Positions 27,758 through 32,170 of a stretch of 37,045 bases of DNA are shown here, one piece after another. The stretch lies in the IMG/VR virus record IMGVR_UViG_3300045994_000456, one strand, 5' to 3'. This stretch comes from a virus. The notes under the pieces were generated by a model. It was not told where the DNA came from, ran no database searches, and saw only the letters and a list, made by a program, of their open reading frames with translations. The stretch's first letter is position 1. Every line of letters begins with the position of its first letter. Position numbers and translations under genes: made by a program.

Positions 27758-28168
27758 TTGATGTCTAGTATTTGGAAGGTTAAAGGTTCGGATAGGTTAG
27801 TATTACTACGTCAACTAATGGGTGCTCTGTTAAATGCCGAGCAGGACAGGCTTGAAAAAAGATTTGAGGAAATGGTGGAAGAGGGTGAATGGGATTTAGA
27901 ACGAGCAGATGGAGACTATCCTTCCGACTCTACGGCTCTGGGTGACTTTCTAAATGGAGAATTTGATGCTTGGGATAGCCCCAGCGCAGCAGCTGAAGAA
28001 TTAGCTCGACAACTGGATGAAGTGGAAGAAATTGAGACTCTTGTTGACGTATTCGAGGAAATGGACGTAGATATTGATGATGTTGTTAAAGCATTAAACT
28101 ATTTGGTAGACGAGAAGGGCTGCAAGACCATCGCAGAGGCCAAAGTGTGTATGGCAGAATTGACATAA
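27758..28168 (+). CDS. Acidic protein, WKxKG paralog family member 1
   Basis: N-terminus MSSIWKVKGSDR. Highly acidic. RBS AAAGGAG upstream. Confidence 0.6.
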   Translation: MMSSIWKVKGSDRLVLLRQLMGALLNAEQDRLEKRFEEMVEEGEWDLERADGDYPSDSTALGDFLNGEFDAWDSPSAAAEELARQLDEVEEIETLVDVFEEMDVDIDDVVKALNYLVDEKGCKTIAEAKVCMAELT

Positions 28169-28189
28169 ACGGATATAAAGGAACAAAAC

Positions 28190-28570
28190 ATGCCTGAAAT
28201 GTGGAAAATTAAGGGCGAGGAACGGAAAGAAAAGACAAGAGAACTTCTGCGGCTCCTATATAATAACCTCACAGAGCAAGTTTTACTGCGGTTTGATAGA
28301 GACACTGACGAATGGGATTGGGATTATGATGATGGTGATGAATGGTCCGCTAACCCTGATTATGTAGTTGATTGGGCAGAAGATGAGGTGTATCTTAAGG
28401 CGTTTAAACCAGATTCTCTAATAGCAGAATTATGGTATGCACTGAAAGAAGTAGAGCATGTGCCCGATGAGAATGAGGTAGATTCTATAATTCTTTTCAT
28501 GGTAAAAAATAAATGCGACAGCTTAGATGACTTGAAAGCATTGTCAGCGAGGCTAGAATCTGAAGCATAA
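28190..28570 (+). CDS. Acidic protein, WKxKG paralog family member 2
   Basis: N-terminus MPEMWKIKGEER. Acidic and Trp-rich (DEWDWDYDDGDEW). RBS AAAGGAA upstream. Confidence 0.6.
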   Translation: MPEMWKIKGEERKEKTRELLRLLYNNLTEQVLLRFDRDTDEWDWDYDDGDEWSANPDYVVDWAEDEVYLKAFKPDSLIAELWYALKEVEHVPDENEVDSIILFMVKNKCDSLDDLKALSARLESEA

Positions 28571-28579
28571 GGTTAAGGA

Positions 28580-29977: not shown

Positions 29978-29999
29978 ATTTTTGGAGAATTACTGACTT

Positions 30000-31358
30000 A
30001 TGCCTCAAGCACAACTTGACTTATTAAATAAAATAATAATAGAAAGGGAAAAACCTAGAGTAATTTCTGAAGGGACTTATAAAATTAAATCAGCACAAAC
30101 CATCTCAGGGAGTGCGTTGCAGGAAATTGAAGACGAATTAGTTTATTCTTATGGCTCCATATTCTATAATCGCCTAGAGGCCCGCACGTTATTAGAAGAG
30201 GTAGGCATAGAATGGACCCATAAAACTGGGAACTGGCCTAAAAGATTTGCTAAGACAATGAAAAAGAATGGCAAAATTTTCGATAATAATTTTTTGTCTA
30301 AGATAGGAAAAATTGCTAGAGAATCATGCTTAACTTTTGCTGGAGATAAACTGATAGTCACTAAAAATTTTGATTGGAAACCAGGTGACTACGGAGATAA
30401 TGACTCGTGTTATTGGGGCTGCCGCTCTGCCGCCCTAATAATATTACGGGACCTAAGAGGCAAAGCTCTGCTGATGAAGGACGAGGATGATATGCCCGTG
30501 GGTAGGTGTTGGTGCGTCCCTCATGGCCGTTTTTATGTCCTATTCAATGCCTATGTAGCAGATGAAACTCCCCTTAGCATAGTATCATTTGCTCGTACAG
30601 TCTCTGACATCTTTAACTTCCCGTACTATCGTAATATTAGATTATACAACTGTGAAAGCACCGAGGGACCACTCTGGATTAATAATGGCCGAGCCTACAT
30701 TGTTGGGGGCCAAGAAATCGCCACTATAGAAGAGCTGGATTTTGATTACCCACTTTATTGTGATGAGTGTGAGAATGAGTGTGAAGGTTCAGCCGTTTTA
30801 GTTGATGACAAGGTGGTATGCGGAAACTGTGACGAAGATTCATGCTATTGTGTAAACTGCAATACTCGTATGCACAGTGATGATTCCCACTATCAAGGTG
30901 ATGATACCGAAGATCCATATTGTACTGCATGTTTCCGTAGCCTCTTTACTAGGTGTGACCGATGTGAAGAGTACTGGGAGTGGAAGACGGAAATCCAAAA
31001 GGTAGGAGATGAGGATTGGTGCCAGTATTGTTATGATAATTACTCACTAGACTGTAGGAGATGCAGCAAGACCATTGATACTGATCATGCAGTTTGGATA
31101 GCAGACGGTAACTTCAATGTATGCCCCGAGTGTGCAGATCAGACCTATCATGAGTGTACAGAATGCAACCGTTTAACAAATAAAGATGACTTAACCCTTG
31201 TAGAAGGGACTAATTACATATGCACCGAATGCCTTAACAAGTTCTACTTCTTCTGTGATGGATGTAGAGAAATATTTGAGATAGGAGAGCTCGCACCTGG
31301 ATCCGCTTTAGGGAATCAGTATTGCGTAGCGTGTGCAGACAAGGAAGAAGTAGCATGA
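30000..31358 (+). CDS. Multi-zinc-ribbon protein, about 12 CxxC pairs in the C-terminal half
   Basis: 452 aa. The C-terminal 200 aa carry repeated CxxC...CxxC units (CDEC, CGNC, CVNC, CTAC, CDRC, CQYC, CRRC, CPEC, CTEC, CTEC, CDGC, CVAC). Confidence 0.65.
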   Translation: MPQAQLDLLNKIIIEREKPRVISEGTYKIKSAQTISGSALQEIEDELVYSYGSIFYNRLEARTLLEEVGIEWTHKTGNWPKRFAKTMKKNGKIFDNNFLSKIGKIARESCLTFAGDKLIVTKNFDWKPGDYGDNDSCYWGCRSAALIILRDLRGKALLMKDEDDMPVGRCWCVPHGRFYVLFNAYVADETPLSIVSFARTVSDIFNFPYYRNIRLYNCESTEGPLWINNGRAYIVGGQEIATIEELDFDYPLYCDECENECEGSAVLVDDKVVCGNCDEDSCYCVNCNTRMHSDDSHYQGDDTEDPYCTACFRSLFTRCDRCEEYWEWKTEIQKVGDEDWCQYCYDNYSLDCRRCSKTIDTDHAVWIADGNFNVCPECADQTYHECTECNRLTNKDDLTLVEGTNYICTECLNKFYFFCDGCREIFEIGELAPGSALGNQYCVACADKEEVA

Positions 31359-32170
31359 AAGTAAACACTGGAGCACTTAGAAAGATATGCAATCTTAGTG
31401 AGGACAAACTCAAGAAATACCTTCTGGCCTCTAATACAGGCATGGAAGATTATGGGGCCTTCTTATGGCACTCCAAACGTAAGGCCGATATACTGGCCGT
31501 TGCACATATGGATGTGGCTTTAGAGAGTGCGGCATTTAATACCGTAGAAACTCCAGACGATTTGTTTATTCTAAGCTCGGCACTGGATGATAGATTAGGA
31601 ATATTTACAATATTACATTTGCTTCCTCAATTCAATATAAAGGTAGACATATTGTTTACCACTGAGGAAGAGATGTGTATGTCATCAGCACAAGAGTTCC
31701 CCGACTTTTGTGACAAGGATTACAATTGGATAGTCGAATTTGATCGCGCGGGGACGGACGTAGTTCTATATGAATATGAAACAAATGTTGATCTTACCGA
31801 TGATCTAAAGTCAGTAGGCTTTGAGATCGGGATCGGCTCGTATTCTGATATAAGAGAGTTAGAACAAATGGGGGTCGGTGCCTTCAACATAGGCATCGGC
31901 TACCATTTTCAACACACCGATCAGTGTTGTGCTTCGATGCTGCAATTAGCAACTCAATTAACCAAGTTGCAGCAATTCTACGAGGAATTTAAAGATGTAC
32001 AATACGATCACAGAGCCATTCCAACAGAGATACCAAAATATAATAGGTTCCTGTGGGAAGATTGTGCTGGCTTTGAGGAAGAAAACGAAAGACTCCTAAG
32101 ACAATATGGTTTAGGTAATAAGATAGAAGACTATCATCTTAGAAGCTATCCTTGCAGCACAACTCACTAA
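31355..32170 (+). CDS. Putative M42/M28-like metallopeptidase (tentative)
   Basis: ATGA overlap with the upstream gene. VAHMDV, LDDRLG, TTEEEM, FDRAGTD and GYHFQHTD occur in the order of the H-D-EE-D-H zinc ligands of M42-type aminopeptidases. Confidence 0.4.
   Translation: MKVNTGALRKICNLSEDKLKKYLLASNTGMEDYGAFLWHSKRKADILAVAHMDVALESAAFNTVETPDDLFILSSALDDRLGIFTILHLLPQFNIKVDILFTTEEEMCMSSAQEFPDFCDKDYNWIVEFDRAGTDVVLYEYETNVDLTDDLKSVGFEIGIGSYSDIRELEQMGVGAFNIGIGYHFQHTDQCCASMLQLATQLTKLQQFYEEFKDVQYDHRAIPTEIPKYNRFLWEDCAGFEEENERLLRQYGLGNKIEDYHLRSYPCSTTH

Follow-up and report, generated by a model that had tools for sequence, protein, structure and literature searches.

We analysed a 37,045-nucleotide (nt) stretch of DNA from IMG/VR record IMGVR_UViG_3300045994_000456 (hereafter, the window), focusing on a gene for a PARP1-3-like ADP-ribosyltransferase (ART) and the gene for a small winged-helix protein, here called g162, which starts 2.2 kb after the PARP stop codon with two genes in between (Table 1). 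All substantial open reading frames (ORFs) of the window lie on the plus strand, and its GC content is ~40-48%. The PARP gene is preceded by genes for two acidic proteins, A1 and A2, the interval between PARP and g162 holds genes for a zinc-ribbon protein and a putative metallohydrolase, and a third protein, A3, is encoded after g162. These genes lie close together on one strand, where neighbours either overlap or are 4-22 nt apart. From 19.9 to 36 kb, the gene order of the window is that of L003, L005 and L007, IMG/VR and metagenome contigs of 260-545 kb, with 35-65% protein identity. An earlier reading of the DNA made from its letters and ORFs alone (the sequence-only reading) centred on the PARP gene and the proteins encoded between A1 and the metallohydrolase; it passed over g162, just beyond the last of these, which is the only neighbour that tracks PARP across deep divergence.

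Table 1. Coordinates of the features discussed, grouped by gene.
Feature	Coordinates	Strand	Size or residues	Basis or remark
PARP1-3-like ADP-ribosyltransferase	28580..29977	+	465 aa	Pfam; PDB PARP1/PARP2 matches
WGR domain	~28658-28852		residues 27-91	Pfam 44.5 bits (cut-off 22)
PARP_reg (helical regulatory) domain	~28988-29410		residues 137-277	Pfam 42.6 bits (cut-off 26.8)
ART catalytic domain	~29435-29974			Pfam PARP 72.9 bits (cut-off 26.7)
His341	29600-29602			Aligned to PARP1 H862
Tyr376	29705-29707			Aligned to PARP1 Y896
Glu445	29912-29914			Aligned to PARP1 E988
Winged-helix protein g162	32186..32674	+	162 aa	AlphaFold2 fold; locus linkage
Winged-helix domain of g162	32186-32500		residues 1-105	C-terminal tail Pro-rich, low-confidence model
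N-terminal domain plus six zinc-ribbon (half-LIM-like) units	30000..31358 (array 30759-31334)	+		CxxC count
M42/clan-MH-like metallohydrolase core (putative)	31355..32170	+	271 aa	PHROG 4191; sub-threshold Pfam M42
A1, acidic orphan	27761..28168	+	135 aa from ATG	Alternative start TTG 27758
A2, acidic Trp-rich orphan	28190..28570	+	126 aa	Isoelectric point (pI) 4.26; BLASTP paralogue of A1
A3, acidic C-terminus	32679..32930	+	83 aa	N-terminal motif W-K-x-x-G-x-[ED]-R-R-K-L-x-R-R
Major vault protein (MVP) homologue	14084-16723	+	879 aa	Pfam MVP_shoulder (E=1e-25), Vault_3
Ro60/Rsr-like protein (TROVE + vWA_Ro60)	1213-2829	+		Followed by tRNA-His (2899-2976) and tRNA-Trp (3256-3334) genes

The sequence-only reading had described the PARP gene as encoding a WGR domain and a PARP domain with all three catalytic residues in canonical context. 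Pfam domains and the alignment of H341, Y376 and E445 to H862, Y896 and E988 of PARP1 bear this out, and solved PARP2 and PARP1 chains match the product with E ~1e-17. In the HMMER alignment to PARP1, 'FFHGS' falls on 'LWHGS' (H862), 'GIYGA' on 'GIYFA' (Y896), 'KSLNY' on 'KSANY' (K903, S904, Y907) and 'NDEFIVY' on 'YNEYIVY' (E988); the PARP1 stretch just before the catalytic Glu is missing. When the catalytic alignment was checked for loss of the H-Y-E triad, the triad was found intact, all three residues being invariant in 120 of the 120 best homologues. Indeed, the tested H, G, Y, K, Y and E of the NAD+ site are each invariant across this set, with Ser384 replaced by Ala in 36 members, and the catalytic residues of the family are under strong purifying conservation. 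Because the tested NAD+-site residues are all intact, the protein is very probably an active, NAD+-consuming ADP-ribosyltransferase. The WGR motif itself reads Y-G-R, with Tyr in place of Trp in 112 of the 120 and the Gly and Arg invariant.

The catalytic Glu had also been taken as the mark of poly-ADP-ribose elongation. The Glu is present, as claimed, but deducing polymer synthesis from the triad overstates the case: the H-Y-E triad is necessary and not sufficient for poly-ADP-ribose synthesis, PARP3 and PARP4 being triad-bearing mono-transferases, and the PDB names PARP4 'mono-ADP-ribosyltransferase'. The product of the window enzyme may thus be mono- or poly-ADP-ribose, and its acceptor may be protein or nucleic acid.

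A search at E<1e-10 gave more than 500 homologues. Nearly all share this domain architecture and a length of ~460 aa, and many come from contigs that are hundreds of kb long. JGI data already include an identical protein (P0014), under the name 'poly [ADP-ribose] polymerase', and annotated GenBank phage PARPs from Xanthomonas, Stenotrophomonas, Klebsiella and Cellulophaga phages share 25-31% identity with it. The window PARP is therefore a new member of a phage PARP type already known from comparative genomics.

Several relatives of the PARP gene are interrupted. In L007 (gene at 5860-8270), a group II intron with a reverse transcriptase/maturase ORF (Rfam RF02012, RF00029) sits directly after the 'NDEFIV' codons, so that exon 1 still encodes the catalytic Glu, 4-5 codons before the intron. 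Another homologue, P0036, has 756 aa and an inserted LAGLIDADG (intein-type) domain, and the L005 gene (8623-9990) is called as two ORFs, one with the WGR domain alone and one with the regulatory and catalytic domains. The retention of the gene despite the intron in L007 and the insertion in P0036 points to selection for an intact enzyme. At five distant loci (L034, L036, L037, L038 and L043), a gene for an NAD+-dependent DNA ligase (LigA-type, BRCT) lies 4-6 kb upstream of PARP, placing a second NAD+-using DNA enzyme in those neighbourhoods.

We assigned the fold of g162 by structure prediction. The AlphaFold2 model has a predicted local distance difference test (pLDDT) score of 93-98 over residues 1-100, with the topology H-b-H-H-hairpin, and the top Foldseek matches are all winged-helix proteins (TFIIE, RTP, PadR and Fur), each of them weak (E>=0.065). 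The g162 family comprises 269 cluster representatives at 50% clustering, and no model in Pfam, PHROG or NCBIfam matches it. A C-terminal MazE/AbrB-type domain is present in 15 of 93 members scanned and a WYL or GerE domain in single members; the window protein has no AbrB domain. Conservation in the family peaks in helix 2 (F24, T25, D28, N31, K34) and the wing (Y84) rather than in the recognition helix, which suggests that helix 2 and the wing form a conserved protein-contact surface.

The case for g162 as a partner of PARP comes from two complementary censuses. In the forward census, all ORFs located <=8 kb from PARP genes were clustered across 26 loci. Only g162 homologues recur beyond close relatives, being found by ORF clustering at 18 of the 26 loci, and the loci that bear them include PARPs 26-28% identical to the window PARP that share no other gene with the window. 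Among the viral loci fetched through PARP, g162 lies downstream of PARP in 14 of 22. For the reverse census, an alignment of the g162 family was used to fetch 35 viral loci, and 33 of them have PARP upstream in the same orientation; the other two offer just 5.5 kb and 0.7 kb of upstream sequence. Once distinct PARP genes are pooled, g162 is found 0-6.3 kb downstream in 41 of 60, and it abuts the PARP stop codon in L021, L045, L047, L048, L080 and L084. The pairing, again with abutting genes, also occurs in contigs binned to one Chloroflexota and three Kofleriaceae metagenome-assembled genomes. No g162 gene was found at the PARP loci of Pseudomonas and Aneurinibacillus megaplasmids, cyanobacteria or Bacillus. 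We regard g162 as the real evolutionary partner of PARP that has, to judge from these loci, been co-inherited across deep divergence.

We then considered enzymes that could reverse the modification. The sequence-only reading had recognised no eraser near the PARP gene and had called the absence notable. Pfam detects no Macro, PARG, ARH or NADAR domain in the 37-kb window, and hidden Markov models (HMMs) built from the Macro and NADAR proteins of related loci gave nothing significant against all six window frames. This absence holds for 37 kb: the longest contig recorded for the PARP protein is 71 kb, and the genome is probably several-fold larger than that. As only 37 kb are covered and the syntenic relatives are on contigs of 260-545 kb, the absence cannot be extended to the whole genome. 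It nevertheless gains weight as an observation, since Macro and NADAR genes directly follow PARP in many related loci. The order PARP, Macro, NADAR, winged-helix was found at 18 of the 60 distinct PARP loci, in a more distant branch of the family; three further loci have Macro only and two have NADAR only, located between PARP and the winged-helix gene or close to them, and many loci pair PARP and winged-helix genes without either. The Macro gene of L032 scores 27.3 bits with Pfam and has homologues that cluster with it; the NADAR gene of this branch is matched by Pfam with E=3e-39. The pairing of PARP with a winged-helix protein, together with the Macro/NADAR cassette of sister lineages, appears to be undescribed in the literature searched. 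Characterised NADARs take ADP-ribose off guanine and cytosine (PMC12945103), and their adjacency to PARP hints at nucleobase modification; the hint is a weak one, because phage Macro and NADAR proteins also neutralise host DarTG by themselves (PMC12945103).

In the window, the interval between PARP and g162 is filled by other genes. The first product had been described as a 12-CxxC zinc-ribbon protein, and the count is exact: 12 CxxC motifs in residues 254-445 make up six CxxC-x18-20-CxxC units joined by 7-residue linkers, with cysteines that are invariant or nearly so in the family. The spacing departs from that of canonical LIM domains, the linkers being of 7 residues rather than 2 and a His ligand being absent; LIM proteins give weak matches only (E=0.039), and Pfam has no match for the protein. 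With 13 homologues, the family forms a small clade, and many unrelated phages encode structurally similar proteins with an N-terminal domain and LIM-like zinc fingers.

The second product had been called an M42-like peptidase. A match to PHROG 4191 'peptidase' (E=3.9e-13) agrees with this, whereas the Pfam M42 model (PF05343) scores 21.4 bits, under its cut-off of 23.2 (E=1.5e-4), and the FrvX match is weak (E=0.25). Its 'DDR', 'EE' and 'fD' align with metal/catalytic positions of FrvX/TET, and the motifs AHMD, LDDRLG, TT(E/D)EE and GIGYHFQHT are conserved in four orthologues, the putative AHMD/HFQH ligands being assigned by eye. The M42 fold carries a PDZ-like oligomerisation domain between the first His and the bridging Asp, and by general expectation of its length this insertion is lacking here. 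As just ~25 residues separate AHMD from LDDRLG, the protein is predicted to be a minimal catalytic core at most. Translation likely starts at ATG 31355 rather than TTG 31322; this ATG overlaps the zinc-ribbon stop codon (ATGA), which suggests translational coupling.

The two genes travel together more closely than either does with PARP. Directly after the zinc-ribbon gene, with an overlap or a few nt between, lies a peptidase homologue in L003, L005 and L007 and a gene of its size in the P0001 contig. The pair directly follows PARP in the window, L005 and the P0001 contig. In L003 and L007, other genes intervene and the pair is 1.7-4 kb from PARP. The closest PARP relative (65% identical) has no gene within 8 kb that is sized for a protein of ~450 aa or ~300 aa. 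At other loci, PARP and winged-helix genes are separated by heterogeneous cargo, including a GIY-YIG-type endonuclease gene. The pair is probably clade-restricted cargo that is not tied to PARP, one of several inserts in a permissive interval. We considered it as a functional replacement of Macro/NADAR, an idea that the heterogeneous content of the interval across loci disfavours; given that heterogeneity, its position in place of Macro/NADAR probably reflects insertion into the permissive interval.

The proteins upstream of PARP had been read as two very acidic, Trp-rich paralogues. Both are acidic, with 26.5% Asp+Glu and a pI of 4.05 in A1 and 27% Asp+Glu in A2, and they are distant paralogues (BLASTP E=1e-7, 27% identity over 100 aa); A2 is Trp-rich (4.8%), and A1, with 2.2% Trp, is not. 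The JGI gene call for A1 (P0135, 116 aa) starts ~20 codons downstream, at 27821, and loses the WKxKG motif. We favour the longer form from ATG 27761 because of an AAGGAG ribosome-binding site 6 nt before that codon and the N-terminal similarity to A2. A3, proposed as a third WKxKG paralogue, does have the motif in common, but its likeness to A1 and A2 is limited to ~30 N-terminal residues (E=8e-5 and 4e-5, respectively). With an HMM made from the A3 orthologues of other phages, A2 ranks second in the whole window (E=0.006) and A1 is not significant (E=0.69). A3 orthologues (36-47% identity in L003, L005 and L007) directly follow the winged-helix gene in all four syntenic relatives, and the family was found only in this close syntenic clade. 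The L007 orthologue reads 'WKIKGEERRK' and A2 'WKIKGEERKEK'; this likeness and the common N-terminal motif suggest that A1 and A2 are probably diverged duplicates of the A3 family. A fourth candidate paralogue, at 18974-19543, was rejected for want of an HMM match.

A profile of A1 and A2 searched against 5.8 billion proteins returned only the two queries themselves, and we dropped them as an acceptor family on this result. Neither gene is present upstream of PARP in L003, L005, L007 or L020, and the syntenic relatives have a DUF262/GmrSD_N gene or a small deaminase-like ORF there instead. From their distribution, A1 and A2 are best described as lineage-specific orphan neighbours, not a conserved part of the PARP system.

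The wider window is treated as a piece of a very large phage-like genome or of a comparable large element. The huge-phage classification follows from the syntenic contigs, which belong to IMG/VR; the window itself holds no virion genes. Megablast of 27000-33000 against GenBank phages gave no match, and therefore GenBank phages include no close sequenced relative of the source phage. The PARP gene is surrounded by replication and nucleotide-metabolism genes (SSB, helicase, HD, DHH). A scan of 25000-35500 for promoters and terminators found signals no more frequent than in shuffled sequence and gives no information on operon boundaries.

Other genes of this region recur with it to differing extents. 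About 2 kb upstream of PARP, a DHH/DHHA1 phosphoesterase gene on the plus strand (25597-26670, weakly NrnA-like) is conserved in four syntenic relatives only, with no evidence of a tie to ADP-ribose metabolism. Small Cys-rich (CxxC) proteins are clustered at 26926-27207, 27141-27749, 32927-33157, 33357-33581 and 33591-33977, and the PARP genes of L003 and L007 are immediately followed by homologues of the last. Downstream, a radical SAM gene (35087-36151, plus strand) is kept in syntenic relatives, usually beside a ClpP-like protease gene that is absent from the window.

Towards the other end of the window, nine tRNA genes predicted by ARAGORN (His, Trp, Tyr x2, Leu x4, Ile) are interspersed with the ORFs from 2899 to 12239, and Rfam recognises six of them. 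The second tRNA-Tyr (10324-10409) may be a false positive, because it lies inside a PD-(D/E)XK ORF (9932-10420) and is without Rfam support. Four genes of cellular type that are unusual in phage encode an MscL mechanosensitive channel (4312-4752; E=5e-40), an NMT1_3/TAXI-like solute-binding protein with a long poly-Gly N-terminus (5583-7322), a DUF2491 protein (7322-8047) and a methylglyoxal-synthase-like (MGS-domain) protein (13350-13877). Near the Ro60-like gene, no Y-RNA family reached the Rfam gathering score; tRNA-like Y RNA was not searched further.

Overall, the explanation that we find best, at somewhat better than even probability, is nucleic-acid-gated ADP-ribosylation by PARP with the winged-helix protein as a DNA-bound targeting subunit or acceptor. 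The WGR domain would sense a nucleic-acid structure that arises in infection, such as a nick, end or break, as in PARP1-3 and the Herpetosiphon PARP. Sensing would lift autoinhibition by the helical domain and switch the ART domain on. The winged-helix protein would act as a dedicated DNA-bound partner, whether as targeting subunit, main acceptor or both, and ADP-ribose (mono or poly) would be placed at particular DNA sites, on the partner, on the enzyme itself or on DNA. In many related phages, the mark could be reversed by Macro and NADAR hydrolases, whose genes lie between PARP and the winged-helix gene. In the lineage of the window, the zinc-ribbon/metallohydrolase pair would sit in that interval and A1 and A2 would be recent additions, none of them required for the PARP system. 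Fusions of g162 relatives to MazE/AbrB, WYL and GerE DNA-binding domains count for a DNA-bound role of the partner.

Several observations weigh against this explanation. The MazE/AbrB fusions are also compatible with a partner that serves as repressor or antitoxin, and Macro/NADAR genes may be adjacent as members of an anti-defence island, not as erasers of a mark that the phage itself makes. With Tyr for Trp in its motif in 112/120 homologues, the WGR domain could bind a ligand different from that of PARP1-3. The linkage seen at 2.2 kb within a syntenic clade is weak by itself, so that the argument rests on the distant loci. No g162 gene lies near the PARP of the cultured phages Xoo-sp13 and Klebsiella 05F01, and a search of 50,697 GenBank phage records with two divergent g162 queries returned none; the partner is therefore not universal to phage PARPs, and the empty search leaves no cultured phage with g162 on hand for experiments. 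In the literature searched, we found no biochemistry on any phage PARP.

We weighed this explanation against others, beginning with that of the sequence-only reading, in which A1, A2, PARP, the zinc-ribbon protein and the peptidase (with A3) form a self-contained ADP-ribosylation module, the acidic proteins serving as histone-like acceptors or regulators and the zinc-ribbon protein as a nucleic-acid sensor. Their close packing on one strand and the lack of above-chance promoter or terminator signals make co-transcription of the genes probable, and PARP, zinc-ribbon and peptidase genes follow one another in this order in the window, L005 and the P0001 contig. The whole 20-kb region is, however, syntenic in close relatives, so adjacency there says little on function; outside four close relatives, A1, A2, the zinc-ribbon protein, the peptidase and A3 never accompany PARP. 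The orphans A1 and A2 give way to unrelated genes in relatives; the zinc-ribbon/peptidase pair is apart from PARP in L003 and L007, and genes of matching size are missing around the closest PARP relative; and at other loci, unrelated genes such as the GIY-YIG-type endonuclease gene lie between PARP and the winged-helix gene. We consider such a module very unlikely and have set it aside. A role in host takeover, in which PARP modifies host RNA polymerase, nucleoid or translation factors or drains NAD+, like T4 Alt/ModA/ModB, and the winged-helix protein is an unrelated co-inherited regulator, fits the lack of an eraser in the window and has been proposed for phage ARTs/PARPs by comparative genomics (PMC7824862; PMC9503650). 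It is nonetheless unlikely in our view: the WGR and autoinhibitory helical domains are kept in essentially all homologues, which suggests an enzyme gated by nucleic acid, not a constitutive one; unlike injected ARTs, the gene is not near head-packaging genes and has no MuF fusion; and linkage to the winged-helix gene at 33/35 loci is hard to ascribe to chance.

The genes might instead have clustered through conflicts over NAD+ and ADP-ribose, PARP, Macro, NADAR and winged-helix(-AbrB) proteins forming an anti-defence or toxin-antitoxin-like island in which Macro/NADAR act against DarTG and the winged-helix/AbrB protein restrains PARP. Phage NADAR and Macro do counter DarTG (PMC12945103), antitoxin-type MazE/AbrB domains occur on 15/93 partner proteins, and the order of toxin-like enzyme first and neutraliser second resembles DarTG. 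Yet no PADLOC defence model matched, the window partner is without an AbrB domain and PARP and winged-helix genes occur in many loci without Macro/NADAR, and we hold this quite unlikely. Finally, the MVP-like, TROVE/Ro60-like and PARP proteins of the window recall a vault-like particle, a phage ribonucleoprotein of these three. The 879-aa protein with MVP_shoulder and Vault_3 domains is matched over its shoulder and cap-helix region (residues 511-848) by rat and human MVP chains in the PDB with E ~2e-14, and a TROVE + vWA_Ro60 protein is encoded in the same window. Against this, the window PARP is of the WGR type (PARP1-3-like) and not PARP4-like, and the three genes are 11-14 kb apart. Full-length MVP-like homologues (37-46% identity) are found on 11 other large viral contigs that share no neighbours with the window, have no PARP or TROVE gene within 10 kb of the MVP-like gene and are not on our PARP contig lists; on this evidence, the MVP-like gene is taken to be widespread in large phages and unlinked to PARP. 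Nor is there an MVP or TROVE gene within 8 kb of 17 cellular PARP loci. We rejected the vault hypothesis for lack of conserved linkage and consider it scarcely credible.

Returning to nucleic-acid-gated ADP-ribosylation with a winged-helix partner, we raise tentatively the possibility of an undescribed two-component, DNA-directed system, composed of a PARP writer and a dedicated DNA-bound targeting or acceptor subunit and joined in many related phages by a Macro/NADAR cassette. Its substrate could be phage or host DNA; DNA rather than protein is possible because characterised NADARs reverse nucleobase ADP-ribosylation. Phage and bacterial PARPs are known from sequence, and in the literature searched no phage PARP with a demonstrated substrate or role was found. 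Here, misleading candidates (the acidic orphans, the zinc-ribbon protein and the peptidase) are replaced by one co-inherited winged-helix protein and the Macro/NADAR genes of sister lineages. If the proposal is true, the locus would be a prokaryotic-virus counterpart of accessory-factor-guided PARP signalling, and DNA-bound targets, or even DNA, may be what the phage ADP-ribosylates. Otherwise, it simply adds to the phage PARP family and lies in a variable part of a huge phage genome.

Among known systems, the bacterial PARPs of Herpetosiphon aurantiacus and Clostridioides difficile CD160 are likened to the window PARP by architecture, having WGR, PARP_reg and PARP domains, ~450-500 aa and the H-Y-E triad. 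Both make poly-ADP-ribose in vitro, the Herpetosiphon enzyme requiring DNA (PMC8120803; PMC5966428), and the modification made by bacterial PARPs is reversed in vitro by poly-ADP-ribose glycohydrolases of the cellular genomes (PMC8120803). In contrast, the window PARP is on a phage-like element, with no PARG in the window, Tyr in the WGR motif and a winged-helix neighbour. The PARPs of jumbo phages (Xanthomonas XacN1 and Xoo-sp13, Stenotrophomonas CM1/RAS14, Klebsiella 05F01/FBKp34 and Cellulophaga phi4:1/phi17:2), annotated as poly(ADP-ribose) polymerase, align over 93-97% of its length with 25-31% identity, and the neighbourhoods in Xoo-sp13 and Klebsiella 05F01 lack the winged-helix partner. 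Such PARP/PART enzymes of jumbo phages have been noted and suggested to modify host macromolecules (PMC7824862; PMC9503650). The Alt-type phage ADP-ribosyltransferases, like the window PARP, are phage-encoded and are used in infection; they differ in belonging to the R-S-E (cholera-toxin) clade and in being mono-ARTs that are not nucleic-acid-gated, and Alt is head-packaged (PMC8120803, PMC9503650).

Human PARP1, PARP2 and PARP3 are the best solved-structure matches, sharing the WGR-helical-ART layout, presumably with its allostery, and an identical NAD+-site residue set at ~25% identity or less; compared with them, the window PARP is without zinc fingers, BRCT domain, N-terminal extensions and the stretch before the catalytic Glu. 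The eukaryotic vault (MVP, TEP1 and PARP4), whose composition and link to NAD+ have been described (bioRxiv 10.64898/2026.05.01.722283), has homologues of all three protein kinds in the window; there, the PARP differs in type from PARP4, the TROVE protein resembles Ro60 and not TEP1, and the linkage is not conserved. HPF1, a small accessory protein that shapes target choice, may be a functional analogue of the winged-helix partner, to which it is unrelated as a protein. In DarT1/NADAR and DarT2/Macro, an ART of the H-Y-E/diphtheria-toxin clade stands beside a hydrolase, the same writer-then-eraser arrangement as in the PARP, Macro, NADAR, winged-helix loci. DarT, however, is a single-domain DNA-base ART of bacterial anti-phage defence, whereas here the enzyme is a multi-domain phage PARP, the window is without the erasers and the constant element is the winged-helix protein.

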